Positions 970 to 61,740 of a stretch of DNA of 64,000 bases are shown in pieces. Origin of the DNA: Candidatus Saccharimonadota bacterium (GTDB lineage Bacteria > Patescibacteriota > Saccharimonadia > Saccharimonadales > UBA10212); assembly GCA_013815775.1 (NCBI GenBank), contig JACDFN010000003.1, forward strand, positions 14,354 through 78,353, written 5' to 3'. The position numbers and the translations under genes are program-made. The notes beneath the pieces are model-generated. The model worked only from the letters and a program-made list of their open reading frames with translations, was not told where the DNA came from and made no database searches. Every line of letters starts with the position of its first letter. Position 1 is the first letter of the stretch.

Positions 970-1207
970 TAAGGGGTTGACTTTAAGCACTAGGGGTTGA
1001 TAAGGTAGTTCGTACGGCAACCGCCAGACCGATCCATGTTTCTAACAAAGGGGTAACTACCCCACCCAACGTAGGAAACGCGGACCTCGAGCCTAGTCGC
1101 TAAGGATTATTCTTGGCAGCAAGGATGGCTCGCAAACTGGCAAGTCGGGAAACAAGGCAACTAAGAAGTTAAAGTTGTAGTACCTACTCAAGGACGGTGA
1201 CTCTACG
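970..1207 (+). promoter_or_regulatory. Long GC-rich 5' leader of the Rpf-like gene; possible riboswitch, class unverified
   Basis: About 240 nt without an ORF lie ahead of 1208. The leader contains GGGGUUGAUAAGG, ACGGCAACC and GGGGUAACUACCCCACCCAACG blocks that loosely recall ydaO-type elements. Confidence 0.25.
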
Positions 1208-1870
1208 ATGCAAGGCACACGGTGCTTTTTCGTGACGAGTATTCTGGCCATTTCGAGCGTTTTAGCTGTCTTGGGGCTTGCACCCACGGCACAGGCCAAG
1301 AGCTCGGTTACTACTCGAATCGCAAAGGTCGAGAAACAAATCGAGAAACTCGAGAAACAACAGCACAAGCACCAAAGCGTGGTTAGGTTTTTCAGCAACA
1401 AAGAACGTCGCTGGATGCTTTACCCGAATCAACAGGCAAAACCTTGTTGGAAGGTGAACCCCCGCGGACCGCTCAAGTTATGCACGGTTGCCCGCGGAGC
1501 TGTACGTGCACACGTAAGGCAGTTAGCTTCGGTTCAGGCAAAAATCGAGCATCTCAAGTCGCTACTGCTGGATACCGGCAACGAGGCAAACTGGAGTTGT
1601 ATTCACCGCTACGAGAGGCATCCGAGACAAGGCTGGGCAACGCGCACTGGCAACGGGTACTACGGTGGCTTGCAGATGGATATCTCATTCCAGAGCACCT
1701 ATGGCCCGCATGTGCTCGGCTATCCCGATTCGGAAACGATGTTCCGGAAAAAGGGAACAGCTAACAAGTGGAGTAGTCGTGAGCAGATGGCGGTGGCGGA
1801 ATACGCCCGCCAATCCGGTCGCGGGTACTATCCTTGGCCGAATTCAGCCCGGACTTGCGGACTTATTTAG
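1208..1870 (+). CDS. Secreted Rpf-like (transglycosylase-like) muralytic protein
   Basis: Signal peptide ending AQA/KSS. C-terminal NWSCIHRYE...TGNGYYGGLQMD...WPNSARTCGL resembles the Rpf pattern W..CES..W..NTGNGYYGGLQF...WP.C..GL. G+C is about 60 % or more. Confidence 0.6.
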   Translation: MQGTRCFFVTSILAISSVLAVLGLAPTAQAKSSVTTRIAKVEKQIEKLEKQQHKHQSVVRFFSNKERRWMLYPNQQAKPCWKVNPRGPLKLCTVARGAVRAHVRQLASVQAKIEHLKSLLLDTGNEANWSCIHRYERHPRQGWATRTGNGYYGGLQMDISFQSTYGPHVLGYPDSETMFRKKGTANKWSSREQMAVAEYARQSGRGYYPWPNSARTCGLI

Positions 1871-1888
1871 CCACTTATTCCCGAAAAG

Positions 1889-1915
1889 GTAGGGAGCCCC
1901 ATGGGGCTCCCTACC
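1889..1915. terminator. Perfect GC-rich palindrome between convergent genes (bidirectional terminator candidate)
   Basis: ggtagggagcccc/atg/gggctccctacc forms 13-bp arms. It sits between the stop at 1870 (+) and the stop at 1952 (-). Confidence 0.7.
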
Positions 1916-1951: not shown

Positions 1952-2599
1952 CTATAAATAAGACTTAAGGCCTTCAAGGTCTTTTAGGACAATAGTTGCT
2001 CGCTGATTACTTATTAAGCCTTTTCTTTCTAAAACTCCTAGCTCGCGGCTAGCAGTTTCCCGGCTGGCATTAATAGAGCTAGCAATGTCTTGATGCCTTA
2101 GGGGCACGTCGATACTGAGCCCCTCCTCTGTTTCATTACCGAAACGCTCAGACATGGTGAGTAAGAATGATATTAATCGCTCTCGCACTGTTCGGTACTC
2201 AAGGTTTAAGATTCTCTGGGAGTGGATTCTATACATTTCAGTGACCATATCAAGAAGAGGAGGTAGGGCAGTGGTATGACTGCGCAGATAGTCTAAATAC
2301 TTCTGCTGGTCTACCCTCCAAAGGCTTGTTGGTACAAGAGCTTGGTAAATAATATCTTTCTCTTCTCCAGTCAGAGTCAGTATAAGCGGGAATATTTCGT
2401 GGCTTTTACGAATAATAAGCAGATTTTCTTCGCCATATTTGCTGATATTGAAGGCTTTGACCAGTCCTTCCTCTATATAATAAACGTGGCTGGGGGTCTC
2501 GCCAGGACGAATTATGAACTCACCCTTTTTATAGGTTAGCTTCGAGCCTTCTTTAAAAAGCCCAACTAGTGCCGCAACCTGCCTCTCGTTCGCTAGCAT
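1952..2599 (-). CDS. Crp/Fnr-family transcriptional regulator (cNMP-binding + HTH)
   Basis: The beta-roll segment FIIRPGETPSHVYYIEEGLVKAF is present. The C-terminal HTH reads HQDIASSINASRETASRELGVLERKGLI. Confidence 0.8.
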   Translation of the reverse strand: MLANERQVAALVGLFKEGSKLTYKKGEFIIRPGETPSHVYYIEEGLVKAFNISKYGEENLLIIRKSHEIFPLILTLTGEEKDIIYQALVPTSLWRVDQQKYLDYLRSHTTALPPLLDMVTEMYRIHSQRILNLEYRTVRERLISFLLTMSERFGNETEEGLSIDVPLRHQDIASSINASRETASRELGVLERKGLISNQRATIVLKDLEGLKSYL

Positions 2600-2608
2600 A
2601 CCTATATC

Positions 2609-2640
2609 TTGTCACATTTTTCCTAAACGTAAAATGTGAT
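2609..2640. promoter_or_regulatory. Inverted repeat in the divergent promoter region (candidate operator)
   Basis: TGTCACATTTT-N10-AAAATGTGATA, with 10 of 11 arm positions complementary and TGTGA/TCACA-like half-sites. It lies 10 nt upstream of the Crp-like gene. Confidence 0.4.
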
Positions 2641-2729
2641 AAAAGTCTTGTCAAATAAGTGCTGAAAATTACTGACTTTTCAGAGGGGTAAGTTCATGAT
2701 GGGAGTATGAGGTAGGGAGAAAATCGCGC

Positions 2730-3341
2730 ATGGTACACCTAAGTATTATCGAGGCAAGGTTATCACATCTAGGCGTAAATATTAGCAGATGGTTTAGGGC
2801 CGAGATAAGGGAATTGCAGCATATACTTATGGATCATGAGCGAATTGTAGCCGTCGTTTGCGGTCGCTACTTTGGCGGCTACGCAATATTAGTAGCTACT
2901 GATCAGAGATTACTGCTCATAGATAAGAAAACCCTTTTTATGACGGTTGAAGACATTCGTTACGATATGATTTCTGAAATAGACTATAGTTCGCGCTTAT
3001 TTGATTCGACGCTAACCATTTTTACGATCAATAAACAGCACCGCTTTACCAGTATGAAATACAGGCAACAGCTTCGTACTCTTACTAATTATGTTCAGCA
3101 AAGGGTTATGGAACTTAGGCACTACGGTCAAGCACCAGAATTTCAGCAATCCAACCAGAACCCTAGGCTCGAGCCATCTACGTATCGCCCCCAAATCACT
3201 CAGGCTCCCTCCGCCCAACGCTCCGCTGACATCCATCAAATAATGGGGGCAGCTGCTCTGCACGATTCGCCGCGAACCAGCCTAAACCCTTATGGCAGAG
3301 TATCTCTTATGACACGAAGACAAATATCCCGAACGCCCTGA
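2730..3341 (+). CDS. Bacterial PH-domain (YokE/bPH-like) protein with a Pro/Gln-rich tail
   Basis: The core ERIVAVVCGRYFGGYAILVATDQRLLLIDKK...STLTIFT is typical of bPH domains. Confidence 0.5.
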   Translation: MVHLSIIEARLSHLGVNISRWFRAEIRELQHILMDHERIVAVVCGRYFGGYAILVATDQRLLLIDKKTLFMTVEDIRYDMISEIDYSSRLFDSTLTIFTINKQHRFTSMKYRQQLRTLTNYVQQRVMELRHYGQAPEFQQSNQNPRLEPSTYRPQITQAPSAQRSADIHQIMGAAALHDSPRTSLNPYGRVSLMTRRQISRTP

Positions 3342-5155: not shown

Positions 5156-5197
5156 TTAACTCTTTGACGTCTAGCCACTCATACAAGGGGAGGCAAC

Positions 5198-5689
5198 ATG
5201 CTCGCGAAGCAAAGGCTTTTGTGGGCAGGCCTTACGGCTTGCTTGCTGGCCCTCATTCCGGTCGGTTTTGGGTCTGCCCAGGTCCAGGCAGAGTACCCGG
5301 CCATTCCTCTGACAGGCTGGGCCGGCCCGGGCTCTGATGCCAGAATTGGCATGACCGTCCCGGTGCAATACCAGGTAAGACCAGAACCAAAAGTCACTGA
5401 CTTGATCATTAGTCTCAAGCTGCCTTCGCAGCTGCGACTGATGAAGGTGACCATCAACGGCAAGCCTGTCTCGTTCATCGCTGAAGCAGACCTGTTCACG
5501 TGGAGGCTCGTCGGCCCCAAGACCAAGAGGCCGCTCATCCGAAACGTTGTGATCATGAGCTTGCAGCTCAAGCGCAAGTGCCCCAACGGTGGGGCGTGTG
5601 TTACAAACATGGTGAACAGGTTCAAGACACGCGGCTCAAACATCTGGCAGGAACAGATGTCACCGTACCAGTTCATAGTTCGCAAGTAA
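5198..5689 (+). CDS. Secreted protein of unknown function (GC islet 2)
   Basis: Strong SD AAGGGGAGG lies 6 nt before the ATG. Signal peptide ...GFGSAQVQA/EYP. G+C is about 60-70 % against about 25-40 % in the flanks. Confidence 0.55.
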   Translation: MLAKQRLLWAGLTACLLALIPVGFGSAQVQAEYPAIPLTGWAGPGSDARIGMTVPVQYQVRPEPKVTDLIISLKLPSQLRLMKVTINGKPVSFIAEADLFTWRLVGPKTKRPLIRNVVIMSLQLKRKCPNGGACVTNMVNRFKTRGSNIWQEQMSPYQFIVRK

Positions 5690-36690: not shown

Positions 36691-37094
36691 GGGTTGGACT
36701 AACGATTGGTCGCCTGTAGTTTTTACTATAGGAGGAAAGTCCGGGCAGCACAGAGCATAGCAGTTGCTAACGGCAACCGGGAGAAATCCTAGGGAAAGTG
36801 CCACAGAAACGACACAACCAGCTCCCTTACAGGGAACTGGAACTGGTGAAACGAGTGGGCCCAGCTTGTCTGGGATAACGAGTTCTAGCGCCTAAATGGC
36901 GCGTTTACTCAAAGGTAAAAGCCCACAGTCCGCCGTGGTGACACGGCGGAGAGGTAAACCCTGCTTGCTGCAAGGAAACAGTCTACAAGAGCTGCTCGCT
37001 ACGACTGTTGTTTAACCGCTCGATCCGTAGGGCAACTTGCGGGCTAGATAGATGGCCAAATAAAACAGAACCCGGCTTACGGTTAGTCCACTCA
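36691..37094 (+). ncRNA. rnpB: RNase P RNA (bacterial type A)
   Basis: Conserved GGAGGAAAGTCCGGGC and ACAGAACCCGGCTTA. P1 pairs TGGACTAAC (36695-36703) with GTTAGTCCA (37082-37090). Confidence 0.95.
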
Positions 37095-37096
37095 TT

Positions 37097-52503: not shown

Positions 52504-53974
<1,471 letters not shown>

Positions 53975-54134
53975 TAGGGAGAACACTAGCATCAATCGTG
54001 GCAACACATTGAGAGCTAGGTCGATATCGATAAACTTTTACCAGTACTGAAGAGTTTATTCTCCACTTCGGTGGACGATACACAGTACTAAAATATGACT
54101 GACGTTGAGATGCACTACTCAGAGTTTAATACTC

Positions 54135-54162
54135 AAAACCGCCTGTAAGGGCGGTTTTGTAG
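54135..54162 (+). terminator. Intrinsic terminator closing the 16S transcription unit
   Basis: AAAACCGCC-tgtaag-GGCGGTTTT followed by GT. Confidence 0.65.
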
Positions 54163-54227
54163 TTAACGACGCATCGTTTATAGATATAGCTATTGTCTTT
54201 TATCTCTACTTATGTCATAGTCTATAA

Positions 54228-55544
54228 ATGGAAAAAAGACAAAAAAATGAACAATCACTGCTAACGGGCAATCGGCGCGTTGGTTTTACTGATCTAGCTG
54301 AAGCTTTCCAACAATATCCTGAAAAAATCCGGGAAATACTTCAGCTTAGCCACACTCTGGACTTCTACCCCTATCGCAGTGGACTTTTCCCGGCTTCAGC
54401 TTTGCCTGGTGAACTGGGTGAAATAACCAGCATGGGTATGGCCTGGCTGCGCGATAGTGCTCATATAGCTGACGGTTTATGGCAAAGTGGCGATACAGAA
54501 AGTGCTACGGCTGCCGGCCGCGCTATTCTGGATATATTCAAAGACCAAAACACCATACACAAGATGGAAGGCATTATCAATGGTAGTCTCGACCCGAAAG
54601 ACCCGAATTCTCGCCCTCCAGTACGGGTTGACGGCGATACGCTTATTTATACTGGCTATAATGATGCTAATATTCAAAATGACTCGGTTGGATATTCGAT
54701 TTGGCTAGCTAGCCGATTAATTAAGAACGGGGAAATAAATACATCTGCCGATGATATCAATACACTAGCTTTGATAACTCGTTACCTAGGAGCAATCCGC
54801 TACTGGGAAGATGCCGATAGCGGCCATTGGGAGGAAACCCGTAAAGTTAACGCTTCCAGTATAGGCGTGGTTGTAGCCGGCCTTAAATCGACGAAAGAAT
54901 TGTTTGTTAGCCTGGGCTATAACCATAATTCTTTGGAGCTAACAGACCTTATTAATAAGGGAGCAGAGACTTTAAATCAGATCCTACCTTATGAATCGCC
55001 TGGACCGGGAGAACTTGAGCGTCGTTATGATTCAGCCTTACTGTTTTTGGTTGAGCCAATGAATGTTGTTAGTCCCGAACAGGCAAGAATGATCGTTGAC
55101 GACATAACGCGGCATATGGTGAGAGACATCGGTATTGCCCGTTATCCCAAAGATTCTTATTGGCACCCCGACTTTCGAGATGAAGTAAAGCTTGGTGAAC
55201 GAGCGACTTTCATCCCAGGTGCATTTGAAAAACGGGAAACCTTAGCTCAGGAAAACAATGAAGCCCAGTGGACTCTTTTCGACCCGCTACTTTCTGTCTA
55301 TTGGGGAAAGCAGTTTAAAGAGACAGGCAATACGAGTGCTCGGGAAAGGCAAATGTGGCACCTTAATCGCTCATTAGGTCAGTTAGTCTGCGGCGGTCCG
55401 GACGGACAATCGTTGCTATTGCCAGAAGCATACTTTTTGGAGAGAGGCCAATGGGTAGCTAATGACCACGTGCCATTGCTGTGGAGTCAGGCTAATTTGA
55501 TGCTAGCGCTTGATATGTTTGAGAAGACCTCGAGACAAGCCTAG
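54228..55544 (+). CDS. Glycoside hydrolase family 15-like (glucoamylase-type alpha/alpha-barrel) protein
   Basis: AWLRDSAHIA, GHWEETRKVNASSIG, YDSALLFL, and LPEAYF...HVPLLWSQANLMLAL. Confidence 0.55.
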   Translation: MEKRQKNEQSLLTGNRRVGFTDLAEAFQQYPEKIREILQLSHTLDFYPYRSGLFPASALPGELGEITSMGMAWLRDSAHIADGLWQSGDTESATAAGRAILDIFKDQNTIHKMEGIINGSLDPKDPNSRPPVRVDGDTLIYTGYNDANIQNDSVGYSIWLASRLIKNGEINTSADDINTLALITRYLGAIRYWEDADSGHWEETRKVNASSIGVVVAGLKSTKELFVSLGYNHNSLELTDLINKGAETLNQILPYESPGPGELERRYDSALLFLVEPMNVVSPEQARMIVDDITRHMVRDIGIARYPKDSYWHPDFRDEVKLGERATFIPGAFEKRETLAQENNEAQWTLFDPLLSVYWGKQFKETGNTSARERQMWHLNRSLGQLVCGGPDGQSLLLPEAYFLERGQWVANDHVPLLWSQANLMLALDMFEKTSRQA

Positions 55545-55592
55545 CGGTTATTGCTGTTGCTTTTTTAAACCTTTTATGCTAATATAGATACA

Positions 55593-55886
55593 ATGACAAA
55601 AATAAAAAAAACACCAGAAGAAGCAGAAGAAAAGTTAGCAATGCAACCCCCTGAAACGGAGTATGTTTCAGAGAGCTACGTAATTAACTTGCCTGCTACC
55701 AACGAGCATCTAGGAGACCCTTGGAGCCTGCGTAAATATGCATCTGAGGTGATGAACAGGGAAATTGGCGACGAGGTACAGCTAACATCTCTTAGAATTA
55801 AAAGACCTGGTTTAACCTCTCGTGGCACCGCTAAGCTTTTTAGTCGAACACCTAGGGTTAGGCTTTATGTTACGACAAAGTTCTAA
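55593..55886 (+). CDS. Hypothetical protein
   Basis: 97-aa ORF. No family recognised. Confidence 0.35.
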   Translation: MTKIKKTPEEAEEKLAMQPPETEYVSESYVINLPATNEHLGDPWSLRKYASEVMNREIGDEVQLTSLRIKRPGLTSRGTAKLFSRTPRVRLYVTTKF

Positions 55887-56086
55887 AACATAGGCACCAA
55901 AAGAAACGCCATATTGGCCGCTATGACTACGAACCCGACAATCTTAATTACATAGGGGTTGTCTAGATCTCTGATAATGCCGGTGCCTGCGTATTGTCCC
56001 AGCCAGCGGACGACTTCATGACTCCACTTAATCAGGGCAAACCCAACCGCGATACCTAGTAATGATTCCATTAATGACATAACCAT
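55883..56086 (-). CDS. Small two-TM membrane protein
   Basis: 67-aa ORF with two hydrophobic helices. Its 3' end overlaps the convergent 55593 ORF by 4 nt. Confidence 0.35.
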   Translation of the reverse strand: MVMSLMESLLGIAVGFALIKWSHEVVRWLGQYAGTGIIRDLDNPYVIKIVGFVVIAANMAFLLVPMF

Positions 56087-56118
56087 TTATTCTCACTGGT
56101 AGTATAAACCATCAAAGC

Positions 56119-56159
56119 TTGAGTTTTAAGGAGTTTTTACGTACAATACCTCTGTTCTT
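56119..56159 (+). promoter_or_regulatory. Promoter for the tRNA-Ile/tRNA-Ala unit
   Basis: TTGAGT (56119-56124), a 17-nt spacer, then TACAAT (56142-56147), followed by ACCTCTGTTCTT. Confidence 0.5.
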
Positions 56160-56196
56160 TTACCCAATAATAAATTAAAAATATAGGTTGTTTTGA

Positions 56197-56273
56197 GGGC
56201 TTGTAGCTCAGTTGGTTAGAGCGCGTCACTGATAATGACGAGGTCCCAGGTTCAAGTCCTGGCAAGCCCACCA
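56197..56273 (+). tRNA. tRNA-Ile (anticodon GAT)
   Basis: GGGCTTGTAGCTCAGTTGGTTAGAGCGCGTCACTGATAATGACGAGGTCCCAGGTTCAAGTCCTGGCAAGCCCACCA. Confidence 0.92.
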
Positions 56274-56279
56274 ATCACA

Positions 56280-56474
56280 ATGACAGATTACGGGAAGGAT
56301 AAGACGCTAAAATTAGCCGCAGCGACTGTTACGGCAATCTTTGCAGTTGGTCTAGGCGGAGCCCTGATAGTGGAGTCAGCTCTGGGTCTTATTATCCTAG
56401 TCAGTCTAGAAGCCGTGCTCTTAATAGGAGCCGGAATAGTACTGAACCGTATGTCAAAAGATAAGGGGCATTAG
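56280..56474 (+). CDS. Possible 64-aa two-TM peptide encoded in the tRNA-Ile/tRNA-Ala spacer
   Basis: The ATG lies 7 nt after tRNA-Ile. Strongly hydrophobic sequence (AAATVTAIFAVGLGGALIVESALGLIILVSLEAVLLIGAGIVL). The stop falls inside the first 10 nt of tRNA-Ala. No SD is visible. Confidence 0.25.
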   Translation: MTDYGKDKTLKLAAATVTAIFAVGLGGALIVESALGLIILVSLEAVLLIGAGIVLNRMSKDKGH

Positions 56475-56541
56475 CTCAGTTGGCTAGAGCACCACATTTG
56501 CAATGTGGGGGTCATCGGTTCGAGTCCGATATGCTCCACCA
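56465..56541 (+). tRNA. tRNA-Ala (anticodon TGC)
   Basis: GGGGCATTAGCTCAGTTGGCTAGAGCACCACATTTGCAATGTGGGGGTCATCGGTTCGAGTCCGATATGCTCCACCA. The G3:U70 pair is present. Confidence 0.92.
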
Positions 56542-56569
56542 AGATACCTTATCGATCTGATATTAAATT

Positions 56570-56610
56570 CCCCCGGGTCGCTCGCTTGCGAGCAACCCGG
56601 GGGTTTTGTT
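56570..56610. terminator. GC-rich terminator hairpin after tRNA-Ala, overlapping the stop of the antisense hydrolase gene
   Basis: CCCCCGGGT-cgctcgcttgcgagca-ACCCGGGGG-TTTTGTT. Confidence 0.7.
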
Positions 56611-57727
56611 ATCCGCAGTTTGCAATGGCGCCCGATTGGGCATCCACTACTGCCTGGCGGAAGGCGGGCAGTGACGACTTCGGAGTGGCGTCAGCATAGA
56701 AGGATCCGGACTGCCAAGCGGACAAGTCGCTCTCGTCACTGGTGTGAAAGAACGAGGTACCGATGACAGTCGGCTGGCAGGCGGCCAGCTCCAGAGCCTG
56801 GCGGTAGAACAACGCCTGAGTAGCTTCGCTAACCGCTTTAGTCGAGGGAGGCTCTGCGGAGTGGTACAAAGACCGCTTGTGAGGCGGAATAATGCTGTCC
56901 ACTCCGTATTCCATGTAGGCGATGGGTAACCTCGAGCCGGCTTGGGCTGTGCGGTTGAAAGCCTCCTCGAGAGCCGCTACCAGCTTCTTGTAGTCGGCGA
57001 AGCCGACATAGGCGCCCTCATGCAAAGCTTCCGGTGACTCGCTGGAGTTTACCCCGTAAGGATGGTACGAAAGAACGTCCATGAGGGGCTTTGTGCGTCC
57101 ACTTTCACGGAAGGCTTTGCCCATTTCCTTGATGTACTCAACCGAGCCACGTGAGGCAAGCCCGCCCCCGTAGACCCGGATGTCGGCCGAAATAGCCTTT
57201 AGCTCGTCATAAGCTTGGGCTAGCACCGTCACGTAGTTCTTGGCGGCGTCTTTTTGGGGCCGCCAGAACGACGGGGAATTGACTTCGTTTCCGATGACGA
57301 AGTCCTTAACTCCGTGAACTAACGTGAGTCCTGTTTTGTCTGTAGTACCTCCTTGCAGAGAGTGGGCCAGGGTGGACAGGAATGTCCGGTACTGGCGCCG
57401 CTGACCGGGTCCGATAGGCGCGCGACCGTACGGTGATACCGACAGAATCATGCGGATGCCGGATAGTTCTGCGGCTGCTACTGAGTTTCTGATGCTTTGA
57501 ACGTCCTGAGGGGACGGCCAAGGCTGGCCTGGTGACCAGGGAATGATCTGCCTGACGACTGTAAAGCCGGCCAGGGAAGTGAGCCTCATCTTCGCGTAAG
57601 CAACTTGAAGATCAGGTTGGAACGCTGAATTCGAAGCCACACCCACCCACTTGGGCGGTGCTGCCTCCGATGACTTTGTTCCCCCCGCTAGCAGCATAAG
57701 GAACGCTACGAGCAGGAATTTCGTCAT
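56609..57727 (-). CDS. Secreted TIM-barrel glycoside-hydrolase-like protein (clan GH-A-type motifs)
   Basis: Signal peptide MTKFLLVAFLMLLAGGTKSSEA/AP. GNEVN (acid/base NE) and AYMEYG (nucleophile Glu) motifs. SD GGAGAGAGG. G+C is about 60 %. Confidence 0.45.
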   Translation of the reverse strand: MTKFLLVAFLMLLAGGTKSSEAAPPKWVGVASNSAFQPDLQVAYAKMRLTSLAGFTVVRQIIPWSPGQPWPSPQDVQSIRNSVAAAELSGIRMILSVSPYGRAPIGPGQRRQYRTFLSTLAHSLQGGTTDKTGLTLVHGVKDFVIGNEVNSPSFWRPQKDAAKNYVTVLAQAYDELKAISADIRVYGGGLASRGSVEYIKEMGKAFRESGRTKPLMDVLSYHPYGVNSSESPEALHEGAYVGFADYKKLVAALEEAFNRTAQAGSRLPIAYMEYGVDSIIPPHKRSLYHSAEPPSTKAVSEATQALFYRQALELAACQPTVIGTSFFHTSDESDLSAWQSGSFYADATPKSSLPAFRQAVVDAQSGAIANCG

Positions 57728-57865
57728 TATCTACACCTCTCTCCGTAGGCAGGAATATCTACGCTACTGCAACTGTGTGTGAAGCAGTTAGGCTAGAGTA
57801 TACATGCAAAAGCTTTAAAAGTTAGAGATTTAACACAAAAAACAGGTGCCAAAGCGTATACTTTT

Positions 57866-57910
57866 CTACATCAGTTTACGATTGACTACCCCTGTTATAA
57901 TTGTTAAGAT
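57866..57910 (+). promoter_or_regulatory. 23S-5S rRNA promoter
   Basis: CTACATCA-N8-TTGACTACCCCTG with the -35 box at 57882-57887, a 17-nt spacer, then TAAGAT (57905-57910). Confidence 0.55.
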
Positions 57911-58430
57911 ATTAAGGTTGTTTGAGTACGGCCAGTCGATGAACGCCGACATAGCGCGCGTTTTCTGGGCTTACTCAAACTCTTTAAGTACAATCTGTCG
58001 CGTTTAGTGGTGGATAAAGTAGGCCTGTATCTTAAAAACTAGGGTAGACGTGCATTAGTGAAGTGCACGTTTTAATTTAGCAAATGACAAACGGCAATTG
58101 GTGATTAACCAATAGCTAGTCAATTGCACTTGACACACCCTTCATCTTCGGATGAAAGGTGTAATCGTAAAAAGTTACTCAAGCGCGCATAAAGGATGCC
58201 TTGACGTAAGACACCGAGGAAGGACGTAGTCGGCTGCGATAAGCCGCGGGGAGCTGCCAAACAAGCTTTGAACCGTGGATGTCCGAATGGGGAAACCTCA
58301 CTAGAGTCATATCTAGTGGCTACCGTCTGAATATATAGGACGGATAAGCGGTAAGCTGGGGAACTGAAACATCTTAGTACCCAGAGGAAAGGAAAGTAAA
58401 CAACGAATCCCGTAGTAGTGGCGAGCGAAC

Positions 58431-58625
58431 CGGGACTAGCTCAAACCTTAACCATTTCCATCTATTTATTTAGGTGGATAAGTTGGTAGACGAAAATGTT
58501 TAAGGGGTTGTGACAAGTAATTAACCAGTACGGAGCCCTGAGAATTTCTCAGATTTCCGTACTGATAGCAGGCTCTACCAATGGTCTGCATAAGGTAAAA
58601 AATTTGCGATGCGAGCAGAAGCTTC
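58431..58625 (+). other. 23S domain I expansion segment (about 145 nt extra)
   Basis: About 194 nt lie between the conserved GCGAGCGAAC and CTGGAAAGG, against about 47 nt in E. coli as I recall it. Contains helix CAGTACGGA...TCCGTACTG enclosing CTGAGA/TCTCAG. Confidence 0.7.
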
Positions 58626-58792
58626 TGGAAAGGGGCGCCATAGACCGTGAAAGCCGGGTATGCCAAGTGTTGCAAACCTTATTATTATTAGGCTATAAGA
58701 CTTGTCTTATAGTGTGTCGAGTAGGACGGGGCACGTGAAATCCTGTCTGAAACTGGGGGGTCCACCCTCCAAAGCTAAATATGTCTTACGAT

Positions 58793-58823
<31 letters not shown>

Positions 58824-60036
58824 TAAAAGAACCCCGGATAGGGGAGTGAAATAGAGCCTGAAATTATGCGCGTACAAGGAGTCGGAGCTAGATTTAGTCT
58901 AGTGACGGCGTGCTTTTTGTAGAACGATCCAGCGAGTTATTTTGCAGCGCAAGCTTAAGCCATTTGGCGGAGGCGTAGTGAAAGCGAGCCTTAATAGGGC
59001 GACAAGTGTTGCAAAGTAGACCCGAAACCAGGTGACCTAACCATGGGCAGGCTGAAGCGTGGGTAAAACTACGTGGAGGGCCGAACCGTAGCGAGTTGCA
59101 AAACGCCCGGATGACTTGTGGTTAGAGGTGAAATGCCAATCGAACCTGGAGATAGCTGGTTCTCCTCGAAATAGCTTTAGGGCTAGCGTCGTGTGGTAGC
59201 TGTGTGGGGTAGAGCTCTGTTTTGGAATGGGGCCCGTAAGGGTATCCACCCTTGACAAACTACGAATACGCACAGTGGTATCACGGCAGTTAGAACGTGG
59301 GGGCTAAGCTCCACGCTCGAAAGGGAAACAGCCCAGATCGCCAGCTAAGGTCCCTAAATATACACTCAGTGGAAAACGAAGTGGGATTTCTTCGACAATG
59401 AGGATGTTGGCTTAGAAGCAGCCATTCATTTAAAGAGTGCGTAACAGCTCACTCATCAAGAGATCCTGCGCGGAAAATGTAACGGGGCTAAAGTGTATTA
59501 CCGAAGCTGCGAATGCTGCTATAAATTTATTTGTAGCAGCGTGGTAGAGGAGCGTTGATATTGCATTGAAGTCAGACCGGGAGGTCTGGTGGAGCGTTAT
59601 CAAGTGAGAATGCTGGAATGAGTAACCACAAGAAGGGTGAGAATCCCTTCCACCGAAAGAGCAAGGTTTCCTGGGCCATGATAATCATCCCAGGGTTAGT
59701 CGGTCCTAAGCCGAGGCGAGTAGCGTAGGCGATGGACAACGGGTTAATAATCCCGTACCGGTAATATATTGTTTCAAGATGCGCGGCATGGTAGCAGAAG
59801 CGGATTCATGGTTATATCCGTCTAACTGGTCTAACGGGCCAGGAATGAGACACCTGAATAAGGTGAATTTCTGTGAGAGTACTGACTAGAAAAGTCTTGA
59901 TACTTATGTATGTTGCCGACCGTACCGCAAACCGACACAGGTGCTCAGGTCGAGAAGACCAAGGTGTACGAGTGAATCTTCGTTAAGGAACTCGGCAATA
60001 CAGCGACCGTAACTTAGGGATAAGGTCTGCCTGGGT

Positions 60037-60174
60037 ATGCCACAATGTTCCAAAAACATGAGAAAAACCTAGGTTTTTCTCATCGCGCCGGCAAAATGGA
60101 ATACATTTTGTCGGGTTGCTCTCTTTCTGAGAAGAAGAGGAGCAAAAACCCAATTTTTGGGATGTTGTGGCATA
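60037..60174 (+). other. 23S expansion segment at the helix-63-equivalent position (about 100 nt extra)
   Basis: Closed by ATGCCACAA/TTGTGGCAT. Contains a perfect 26-nt palindrome at 60058-60083 and at least two more hairpins. No ORF. Confidence 0.7.
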
Positions 60175-60468
60175 TCTAGGCCGCAGCTAAAGAACCCATG
60201 CAACTGTTTACCAAAAACACAGGTCTCTGCTAACACGAAAGTGGATGTATAGGGGCTGACTCCTGCCCGGTGCTGGAAGGTTAAGGGGAAGGCTTTACGG
60301 CTTGAACTTAAGCCCCAGTGAACGGCGGCGGTAACTATAACCGTCCTAAGGTAGCGAAATTCCTTGTCAGGTAAGTTCTGACCCGCACGAATGGAGTAAT
60401 GATATGGGTACTGTCTCAACGAAGAGCTCGGTGAAAGTGCATTGACGGTAAAGATGCCGTCTGTCCGC

Positions 60469-60500
<32 letters not shown>

Positions 60501-60861
60501 ACAGTTTGGCATTGAATCGGGTTGTAACATGTGTAGGATAGGTGGGAGGCTTTGAAGCCAGAGCGCTAGCTCTGGTGGAGCCAACGGTGAAATACCACCC
60601 TTGTTACAATCTTATTCTTACATTAACCGTTATCCGGTTAGTGGACAGTGTCTGATGGGTAGTTTAACTGGGGCGGTTGCCTCCTAAAGAGTAGCGGAGG
60701 CGTTCAAAGGTTGGCTAGATACGGATGGAAATCGTATCGGTAGTGTATACGCATAAGCCAGCTTGACTGTGAGGCCTACAAGCCAAGCAGGCACGAAAGT
60801 GGGAGTAAGTGATCCGCTGTCCAAACCATTTTTGGTTTACGAATGTGGTATCGGCAGCGCA

Positions 60862-60894
<33 letters not shown>

Positions 60895-60926
60895 TATAGC
60901 GCCCAATAGTTCACATAGACGGCGCT

Positions 60927-60961
<35 letters not shown>

Positions 60962-60975
60962 AGGAGGAGCATCTT

Positions 60976-61046
<71 letters not shown>

Positions 61047-61622
61047 TTATATCCGCTGTGGACGTCAGGAAATTTGAGAGGATTTGTCGCTAGTACGAGA
61101 GGACCGCGATGAACGCACCGCTGGTGTACCGGTTGTTCTACCAAGAGCATCGCCGGGTAGCTATAGTGCGGACCAGATAAGCGCTGAAAGCATATTAAGC
61201 GCGAAACTGACCTCAAGATTAGATTTCCCCAGAGACCCCTGAAAGACTATCAGGTTGATAGGCGCAAGGTGTAAGTGCGGTAACGCATTCAGCCGAAGCG
61301 TACTAATAGGTCCATTGACTTTTTACGAGTCCTCACAGACGAGCCATGAGGCTTTACTTGCGAGAGTCTGTGAGGGCTGGTGCATTGACTAGCTATTGGT
61401 AGTCAGCAAATAGCTGATTACCGGTCATTTGTTAAATATCTAACTGTTATTTGGCATCAAAGGATGTTACATTTACATCGTACTCGTGCATTAATAATTC
61501 ATTGGCGTCGACTTCCGCTACTTTTCTTAACAAGGGAAAGGTAGTAGCCGCAGTCTGCTTTAGCAAATTCGGATTTATTCCGAAAGCGGCGTTGAAGGAA
61601 AACCGTAGGTTGTCCTTCAAGG

Positions 61623-61740
61623 TAGTCGGTGCCCATGGCGCTAGGGAAACACCTGTTCCCATCCCGAACACAGCAGTTAAGCCTAGCAGCGGTTACAATA
61701 CTTGGGTTTAACCCTGGGAAAATAGCACGGTGCCGAACTA
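61623..61740 (+). rRNA. rrf: 5S ribosomal RNA
   Basis: GTCGGTGCCCATGGCGCTAGGGAAACACCTGTTCCCATCCCGAACACAGCAGTTAAGC...GGTGCCGAACTA. Confidence 0.93.

Follow-up and report, generated by a model that had tools for sequence, protein, structure and literature searches.

A conserved leader RNA upstream of genes for predicted secreted Rpf-type and other lysozyme-like proteins in Saccharibacteria

Cultivated Saccharibacteria live on Actinobacteria, and there is essentially no prior knowledge of how these bacteria, or ultrasmall epibionts more widely, regulate their enzymes for remodelling or breaching cell walls. Here we analyse positions 977-1915 of a 64-kb stretch of a Candidatus Saccharibacteria metagenome-assembled genome (the window throughout), where a structured leader RNA precedes a gene for a predicted secreted protein with an Rpf-type domain. 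Rpf domains are typical of and widespread in Actinobacteria, to which the family has been held to be confined (PMC1084345). The ydaO-yuaA riboswitch, which responds to cyclic di-AMP (c-di-AMP), regulates rpfA and further cell-wall hydrolase genes of Actinobacteria (PMC6009663, PMC9960051), and rpfB of pathogenic mycobacteria has a narrowly distributed switch (PMC6009663). The c-di-AMP-related leaders lysM-TM7, lysM-Actino, lysM-Prevotella and M23 are orphans that precede cell-wall-degrading genes (PMC5737381). Exchange of the wall-cutting domain itself has also been described, with actinobacterial Rpf and firmicute Sps as a case of non-orthologous domain displacement (Ravagnani et al. 2005, PMC1084345). 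For Saccharibacteria, the literature we searched reports no Rpf protein and no native riboswitch or RNA regulator beyond one orphan motif.

The locus lies within an islet of raised G+C content (990-1915) that begins about 220 nt upstream of the gene, and an equally long gap stands before every orthologue. A first-pass annotation of this DNA read the islet as a single gene acquired from the host lineage and overlooked its first ~200 nt, which are a structured leader RNA and neither coding nor junk. The aligned upstream gaps of the orthologues contain conserved blocks between stems that vary compensatorily, and independent minimum-free-energy folds of 15 leaders give one common architecture. The leader, about 195 nt in all, opens with a 133-nt RNA in which a closing helix and two long arms form a three-way junction, and each arm carries an asymmetric internal loop of conserved bases. 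Arm 1 (P2-P2a-P3) has the loop GAG/CGCCAA, which reads AAAG/ACCCAA in the window copy, arm 2 (P4-P5) has the loop UAG/AAGGAU, and the junction strands are ACC, UU(U) and ACAAA. The features from promoter to ribosome-binding site are as follows.

977-982, plus strand: putative -35 box TTGACT, by reading of the sequence
1001-1006, plus strand: putative -10 box TAAGGT, likewise
1015-1147, plus strand: three-way-junction leader RNA (covariance model R1, 90.7 bits, expectation value (E) 1e-19)
1021-1027/1137-1143, plus strand: helix P1, which closes the three-way junction
1031-1037/1080-1086, plus strand: helix P2
about 1038-1047/1070-1079, plus strand: helix P2a
1050-1054/1059-1063, plus strand: hairpin P3
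1088-1093/1127-1132, plus strand: helix P4
1096-1103/1113-1120, plus strand: hairpin P5
1158-1187, plus strand: possible expression platform, hairpin P6 (1158-1162/1173-1177) followed by the conserved block UAGUACCUAC
1190-1194, plus strand: Shine-Dalgarno sequence AAGGA, 13 nt before the ATG

Conservation of the leader RNA extends to at least 19 Saccharibacteria lineages, and compensatory changes in its helices are abundant. A MAFFT alignment of 15 sequences, made without reference to the structure, has 91.3% of its cells paired and compensatory changes in 27 of 42 pairs, against 8-12 such pairs in slid controls. An R1-fitted alignment of 19 distinct sequences gives 92.8% paired cells and 30 of 42 compensatory pairs, against 9-13 in its slid controls, and none of 500 shuffles attains the observed values with either alignment. 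R1 finds one copy per Saccharibacteria locus, at 89-143 bits, including four leaders that were reached through protein homologues and lay outside its training set (100-113 bits). Scans with DNA patterns added four Saccharibacteria/Saccharimonadales metagenome-assembled genomes, all GTDB species representatives, and eight metagenome contigs; Streptococcus contigs and one other contig from these scans were chance matches without an R1 match and were discarded. R1 has no further copy in the 64-kb window and none in three actinobacterial loci upstream of rpf-like relatives, where the one match, elsewhere on contig L009, is 11-bit noise. In all loci the RNA precedes the start codon by 60-95 nt and shares its strand with the gene, and the frequent G-U pairs identify the plus strand as the functional one. 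Folded alone, the core leader of the window takes the same architecture (z = -2.37); a fold of the whole 249-nt intergenic region is uninformative (z = +0.33).

Most other leaders have a -10 box, often extended (TGnTATAAT or TGTTATCAT), 14-20 nt upstream of P1, and locus L001 repeats the TTGACT-17-TAAGGT arrangement of the window. With a -10 box just upstream of P1 the RNA would therefore start at the motif, and we place the transcription start of the window copy near 1012-1014, at what would be the 5′ edge of the RNA. On the 3′ side, nearly all leaders have a hairpin after P1, then (U)CGUACCU, then the Shine-Dalgarno sequence, which reads AAGGAGG or AAGGA at the corresponding place in all of them. 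This hairpin, P6, is variable, weak in the window copy and 7-13 bp long in others.

The RNA family at 1015-1147 is a well-supported and previously undescribed leader RNA. Rfam 15 gave no match at the gathering threshold in the window or 17 other loci and no match at E up to 10 in five leaders, and we rejected an assignment to the ydaO/c-di-AMP riboswitch (RF00379) on these results. Like ydaO-yuaA, the window leader is a multi-helix 5′ leader of about 130 nt acting in cis by position, and its two arms with asymmetric internal loops lend it a loosely similar two-part look, but its conserved sequence blocks differ. As with rpfA and rpfB (PMC6009663), the gene stands behind a structured RNA leader, although that leader is distinct from the rpfB switch found in pathogenic mycobacteria. 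Among known RNAs it is nearest in kind to the orphan set of lysM-TM7, lysM-Actino, lysM-Prevotella and M23, which are likewise phylum-restricted structured RNAs of 5′ untranslated regions, lie before genes for wall-degrading enzymes and have no known ligand. One of them, lysM-TM7, is specific to TM7 (Saccharibacteria), the same phylum as the window leader. The orphan motifs precede LysM or M23 genes, whereas the present family precedes genes for Rpf-, Apf-C- or SLT-like glycosidases; it is set apart from the lysM-TM7 group by the negative Rfam 15 scans alone, and the presence of those motifs in Rfam 15 was not confirmed by name.

All genes behind the leader encode small proteins that start with a signal peptide, and the leader always stands directly upstream of a gene for what is predicted to be a small exported lysozyme-like enzyme, with a catalytic domain that differs between genomes. 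The domain is Rpf-like in the window and most loci. Loci L010 and L017 instead encode a domain like the C-terminal part of aggregation-promoting factor (Apf-C; NF052397, 69-90 bits), and L016, L018 and L020 encode a CxIDxESR...SGAYQF domain weakly similar to the lytic transglycosylase gp144 of phage phiKZ (E 0.009). Pfam gave no match to these alternative C-terminal domains, and their assignments come from NCBIfam and PDB searches. The N-terminal modules are of type A, a Cys-loop hairpin as in the window, or of type B, with a YRxxTWRWQ motif as in Gaiellaceae; the Saccharibacteria loci L021 and L022 have the type-B architecture behind the same leader RNA. In a tree of the neighbouring methyltransferase-like protein TlyA the domain types are interspersed, with Apf-type L010 nearest to Rpf-type L031 (71% TlyA identity), and the coding part therefore appears to have been replaced several times while leader and position were kept. 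As in the Rpf/Sps case, a muralytic domain is swapped while accessory architecture and genomic role are kept, with Rpf-, Apf-C- and gp144-like domains alternating behind the same leader and N-terminal modules. Unlike that case, the swaps occur within one phylum, at one fixed locus with predicted RNA control, and between fairly close relatives such as L010 and L031. We infer that the coding part of the locus is a replaceable cassette, some versions of which were exchanged with Gaiellales-like Actinomycetota.

The window version of this cassette is the coding sequence 1208-1870 on the plus strand, whose 220-residue product is identical to NCBI MBA3757861.1 (H0X09_03280), annotated there as 'hypothetical protein'. 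Its parts and the palindrome that follows it are these.

1208-1297, plus strand: signal peptide, residues 1-30 of the translation, with predicted cleavage after AQA (between MQGTRCFFVTSILAISSVLAVLGLAPTAQA and K)
1298-1567, plus strand: type-A N-terminal module, with long helices 29-63 and 88-119 and a connecting loop in the AlphaFold2 model
1568-1870, plus strand: Rpf-type transglycosylase-like catalytic domain (residues 121-220) and stop codon, by profile and model
1888-1915, strand-neutral: perfect G+C-rich palindrome of 14 + 14 nt without spacer (arms 1888-1901 and 1902-1915)

The first-pass annotation had assigned the product a Sec signal peptide and an Rpf-like C-terminal domain, and both assignments hold. 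The signal peptide was called from sequence features and not by a dedicated predictor; the N-terminus ends in AQA, the AlphaFold model has a helix at residues 5-22 in this region, and every orthologue has a hydrophobic N-terminus that closes in an A-x-A-like site. The full-length AlphaFold2 model (mean predicted local distance difference test score, pLDDT, 81.8) shows a helix pair and then a compact C-terminal domain. The loop of the type-A module holds the invariant cysteines Cys80 and Cys92, and an alignment of N-terminal modules adds F61, W69 and R96 to the invariant positions; a profile search with this module returned seven proteins only, all already members of the group.

Sequence profiles and structural models together indicate that the C-terminal domain is a diverged but genuine Rpf-type domain with a lysozyme-like predicted fold. 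A profile of 32 family members, searched against the PDB, matched nothing but the M. tuberculosis proteins RpfB, RpfE and RpfC, in their catalytic domains, over the whole domain and at E 7.2e-9 to 1.3e-4. In the profile alignment Glu136 falls on the catalytic Glu of the RpfB motif C-E-A-G-G, and W129, C131, E136, TGNG, the YYGGLQM core and C217 are invariant in all 32 sequences. An AlphaFold2 model of the domain alone (pLDDT 85.9) found RpfB in its best four Foldseek matches to the PDB, with probability 0.75-0.99, template modelling (TM) score 0.50-0.60 and 31-33% identity, at E-values of merely 0.03-0.35; coiled-coil look-alikes dominated the search with the full-length model, which gave no significant match and was set aside in favour of the domain-only model. 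An NCBIfam RpfC match to the product scores 25 bits, and precomputed PF06737 matches are present in many orthologues and Gaiellaceae relatives. In Rpf proteins a Cys pair forms a disulfide, as seen in RpfB structures; the aligned Cys131 and Cys217 are a conserved pair that brackets the predicted domain and is intact in the window protein.

Compared with the Rpf catalytic domain (PF06737) of M. tuberculosis RpfB/E/C and M. luteus Rpf, to which it is homologous (E 7e-9 to RpfB), the window domain shares the TGNGYYGG(L/V)Q core, the aligned catalytic Glu, the Cys pair, secretion and the predicted lysozyme-like fold. It differs in its motif W-x-C-I-H-R-Y-E-R-H-P-x-Q-G-W, where Rpf has C-E-S/A-G-G-N-W, in a 9-residue insertion (VLGYPDSETMF) found in the window subgroup, and in its partner, a two-Cys helical hairpin in place of DUF348, G5 or LysM. 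It differs also in coming from Saccharibacteria and not from Actinobacteria, so that the Rpf family extends to a second phylum, one that lives on Actinobacteria.

We consider it likely that this unit is a conserved, single-copy muralytic cassette in which a riboswitch-like leader controls a potentially self-lytic enzyme. Promoter, leader of about 195 nt, gene and 3′ hairpin (977-1915) would make up one conserved transcription unit of what appears to be a soil- or groundwater-type Saccharibacteria genome. The leader would act in cis as a riboswitch-like sensor that sets the amount of the enzyme, by means of P1 stability and of the hairpin that lies downstream, beside the Shine-Dalgarno sequence, and the protein would leave the cell via Sec and cut the glycan strands of peptidoglycan, its helical hairpin perhaps serving as a stalk or partner-binding module. 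Tight control would make sense because the enzyme can lyse its producer, the same argument that has been made for mycobacterial Rpfs (PMC6009663). By analogy, candidate ligands are a nucleotide second messenger (for example c-di-AMP) and a cell-wall precursor or turnover product; a crude regular-expression search for diadenylate-cyclase motifs found none in the window, 64 kb of a roughly 1-Mb genome.

Several observations weigh against this account. The sample is biased to the consensus, because 12 of its 19 leaders were obtained with DNA patterns in which part of P4 and its loops was fixed, and the window copy (90.7 bits) is one of the two most diverged, with a P2a/P3 loop that departs from the consensus. 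The promoter, 5′ end and 5′ untranslated status of the RNA are deduced from predicted -10 boxes, and the promoter at 977-1006 is absent from the consensus-scan list because its -10 box is weak. No U-tract follows the post-P1 hairpin, and inspection by eye found no conserved alternative pairing of the P1 3′ strand, P4 or P3 with the downstream hairpin or Shine-Dalgarno sequence. On the protein side, the third domain type is linked to muralytic enzymes by weak matches (E about 0.01), and the Pfam profile search that the first-pass annotation proposed matched PF06737 (23.0 bits, E 1.3e-4) but did not reach the gathering score of 27. Conserved structure alone, moreover, does not establish ligand binding, and a protein-binding leader is possible.

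This last point can be broadened into an alternative in which the leader is structured but no small-molecule riboswitch, and serves instead as a site for a regulatory protein, a target of an RNase or small RNA, a thermosensor or an mRNA-stabilising 5′ structure. No ligand is known, neither a classical terminator/antiterminator nor a Shine-Dalgarno-sequestering alternative could be derived, and the orphan leaders lysM-TM7, lysM-Actino and M23 did not bind c-di-AMP in vitro (PMC5737381). Yet the motif has a multi-helix junction, and more than 25 nearly invariant unpaired nucleotides cluster at its junctions and in its internal loops, with stems that are free to vary, a pattern that in general experience is typical of metabolite aptamers and not of simple operators or thermometers. 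On balance we regard a leader of this other kind as a serious but rather unlikely alternative to riboswitch-like control.

A more far-reaching form of the riboswitch-like reading can be proposed only tentatively, and we doubt that it holds in full. It would make the leader a new riboswitch class restricted to Saccharibacteria, perhaps with other Patescibacteria, that senses envelope state or host contact through a candidate cyclic dinucleotide, peptidoglycan precursor or host-derived muropeptide and gates an interchangeable wall-cutting enzyme at the host interface or the cell's own septum, in a cassette site that captures muralytic modules of actinobacterial hosts time and again and whose G+C content is actively kept. 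The leader is short, well defined, rich in covariation and placed at a core-genome locus, which makes binding screens and reporter assays directly feasible, and if it binds a ligand it would offer a native inducible switch, a genetic tool for which the field has asked (PMC11665869).

The composition of the locus raised the question of import. The islet at 990-1915 has 53.3% G+C against 44.7% for the window, at the 98.7th percentile among segments of 926 nt, with 63.3% at 1441-1500 and 38-45% in the neighbouring genes. Its sole gene, 1208-1870, has 53.8% G+C and a G+C content at third codon positions (GC3) of 0.606, against a median of 0.417 (standard deviation 0.074) for the 53 open reading frames of the window, among which it is one of just three GC3 outliers, the others being 5198-5689 on the plus strand and 56609-57727 on the minus strand. 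These values agree with the first-pass description of a one-gene islet with a spot of about 63% G+C above its neighbours, and the sliding-window comparison suggested there does single it out.

A straightforward reading of such an outlier, and the one adopted in the first-pass annotation, is recently acquired DNA of an actinobacterial host whose donor G+C has not yet worn down. It accords with the distribution of Rpf domains and the lifestyle of cultivated Saccharibacteria noted at the outset, and with nearest outside relatives among Gaiellaceae-like Actinomycetota, whose genes share about 70% identity in the encoded domain and are native in composition to their own high-G+C contigs. The orthologues tell otherwise. 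The 16 best database matches are 42-59% identical over full length, and we examined the contigs of ten of them together with two from the DNA-pattern scans. In all 12 sets the rpf-like gene lies in one Saccharibacteria neighbourhood, rpsF-ssb-rpsR-efp-tlyA-like ... ychF (S6-SSB-S18-EFP-TlyA ... YchF), immediately downstream of the tlyA-like methyltransferase gene or separated from it by one or two genes. The Rpf-like proteins are 47-59% identical to that of the window, against 55-63% for TlyA and 70-73% for YchF, and the closest TlyA (L032, 71%) is paired with the closest Rpf-like protein (P0005, 64%). Synteny, and divergence in step with the housekeeping neighbours, identify this as vertical inheritance from the common ancestor of a deeply split group.

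Composition leads to the same place. GC3 of the orthologues is 0.61-0.81 against neighbour medians of 0.41-0.55; the excess is even over signal peptide, the Saccharibacteria-specific N-terminal module that is missing from Gaiellaceae, and Rpf domain, and it recurs in genomes with an unrelated lysozyme-like domain in place of Rpf. By amelioration reasoning, donor composition could not persist at synonymous sites over a divergence that leaves 47-59% protein identity, and the composition therefore marks no recent event. The islet flanks (tlyA-like and crp-like) hold no mobility domains, integrase or nearby tRNA; direct repeats were not specifically searched. Neighbour joining of the domain sequences recovers the window type as a deep and diverse clade that is sister to, and not nested in, a shallow Gaiellaceae-type clade, with L021 and L022 outside both; the tree has about 100 columns, covers the 120 matches nearest the query, is midpoint-rooted and leaves distant actinobacterial members unsampled. 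The closest homologues are thus essentially all Patescibacteria with the same raised G+C, the finding that the first-pass annotation had itself named as refuting its idea, and of the phylogeny it proposed the expected actinobacterial relatives did appear as nearest outside Saccharibacteria, but without the window protein nested among them. Synteny and shared composition largely refute recent import, which we now hold to be very improbable. The comparisons show a gene that predates the divergence of these lineages, and an ancient exchange between Saccharibacteria and Actinomycetota is plausible. A compositional islet is by itself no evidence of recent transfer.

Beyond Saccharibacteria the closest relatives form a large, shallow family of about 186 residues with a CIHRYERHP...TGNGYYGGLQMD domain that is 68-75% identical to the window domain, and the actinobacterial flavour remarked at first pass is borne out in that these nearest outside relatives belong to high-G+C Actinomycetota. 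One member is named Gaiellaceae, and the family includes the Gaiellaceae/Thermoleophilia 'transglycosylase family protein' NCBI MEO5575504.1 (P0057). Three contigs with such a gene have 70-71% G+C, to which the gene (GC3 0.90-0.95) is native, and on one of them the GatB protein shares 82-89% identity with proteins labelled Gaiellaceae, Thermoleophilia or Actinobacteria. The family shares with the window protein the CIHRYERHP motif, a signal peptide followed by a helical N-terminal region, and a single-copy place in a conserved core neighbourhood; it differs in its type-B N-terminal module (YRxETWRWQ...), in its native G+C content and, at the three loci, in having neither the R1 leader motif nor an Rfam element upstream. 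Upstream of these Gaiellaceae-type rpf-like genes we also observed a conserved stretch, TTACCTTTTGCAAACAG...TTGCTAGCCT (L009 5879-6000, L033 7878-8000, L034 7620-8000), which could be a promoter or a separate leader; neither Rfam nor R1 matched it in the three contigs.

The Saccharibacteria protein of L021 is 58-61% identical to Gaiellaceae proteins over full length, N-terminal module included, and only 41% to the window type and 47% to its close relative L022. Because it is closer to Gaiellaceae than to its own relatives, L021 suggests that the entire gene was exchanged between the phyla on at least one separate occasion. The locus thus combines domain displacement with likely exchange between two phyla. 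The direction may also be reversed, with the CIHRYE-type domain ancestral in Saccharibacteria and passed from the epibionts to Gaiellales, or drawn by both from a third party: under midpoint rooting the Saccharibacteria sequences are far more diverse and paraphyletic around the shallow Gaiellaceae-type clade. We think this improbable, since the gene fits the composition of Gaiellaceae and departs from that of Saccharibacteria, canonical Rpf domains occur widely in Actinobacteria (PMC1084345), and the topology stems from neighbour joining on a domain of about 100 residues with arbitrary rooting.

The raised synonymous G+C is a maintained property of the whole transcription unit. One possibility is that the anomaly has nothing to do with foreign origin and is kept in genes for exported proteins or at a recombination-prone cassette locus, with synonymous-site selection (rare-codon throttling or mRNA stability) or GC-biased gene conversion as possible causes. 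GC3 is high in every orthologue and domain type and evenly so along the coding sequence, module replacement is seen at the locus, and the three GC3 outliers of the window, like the top-GC3 genes of L006 and L010, carry N-terminal signal peptides. The sample is small, however, and signal peptides were judged crudely; folding of the coding sequence barely beats shuffles (z = -1.71, 20 shuffles), there is no direct sign of recombination tracts, and type-B genes may have been acquired repeatedly from high-G+C donors. We give such maintenance a little less than an even chance.

Genes other than the rpf-like one hint that the GC3 excess is a secretome-wide effect rather than a foreign mark. In the window and several related contigs the top-GC3 genes mostly encode small proteins with N-terminal signal or anchor sequences, among them L006 1168-2339 and L010 6181-6927; those of L006 include a sortase, and high synonymous G+C may mark genes for exported proteins generally in these genomes. 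The second islet of the window, 5198-5689 on the plus strand (about 57% G+C), holds as its likely gene an open reading frame of 163 residues with a clear signal peptide (MLAKQRLLWAGLTACLLALIPVGFGSAQVQA...), without a Pfam match and without an R1 copy upstream; a longer overlapping frame at 5179-5685, in minus orientation (GC3 0.71), is probably an artefact. The third, 56609-57727 on the minus strand (GC3 0.65), encodes a protein of 372 residues that has a signal peptide and contains a GNEVN motif; Pfam gives it no more than faint glycosidase-like matches (Apiosidase-like, E 0.02).

Downstream of the rpf-like gene, the palindrome at 1888-1915 was noted at first pass as perfect with 13-bp arms; it is perfect, and its arms measure 14 nt. 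The rpf-like gene and the crp-like gene, which converge on it, probably share it as a 3′-end or terminator hairpin. TTTTC comes after it on the minus strand, where it resembles a normal terminator for the crp-like gene (1952-2599, minus strand), and on the plus strand the sequence has no U-tract after it. All orthologous loci have G+C-rich hairpins without a U-tract downstream of the rpf-like gene, and those of L001, L004-L006 and L008 are long and near-perfect, with no U-tract on the gene strand. U-less 3′-end hairpins have been reported for many Actinobacteria, and these Saccharibacteria may use them too.

The gene neighbours vary around this conserved core. The crp-like regulator gene and a bacterial-PH-domain gene (window 1952-3341) shift as a pair relative to the rpf-like gene, lying downstream in the window, L001 and L032 and upstream in L004, L005 and L028, and being absent in L006, L008, L026 and L031. 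A class-A beta-lactamase-like gene (Beta-lactamase2) often adjoins the rpf-like gene, in L005, L006, L026 and L028.

Elsewhere in the window, the rRNA operon is stretched over 52504-61738, with about 4.2 kb between 16S (52504-53973) and 23S (58168-61327). This gap contains a GH15-family glycoside hydrolase gene (54228-55544, plus strand), tRNAs at 56197-56270 and 56465-56538 and, antisense between these spacer tRNAs and 23S, the secreted-protein gene of the third islet. Relative to the Rfam model the 23S gene has about 235 nt of additional length and several insertions close to the 5′ end, among them those around 58455-58495 and 58523-58600. The class A RNase P RNA (36694-37095, plus strand, 225.7 bits) likewise has an insertion, of about 62 nt around 36860-36920, where the model has 7 nt.

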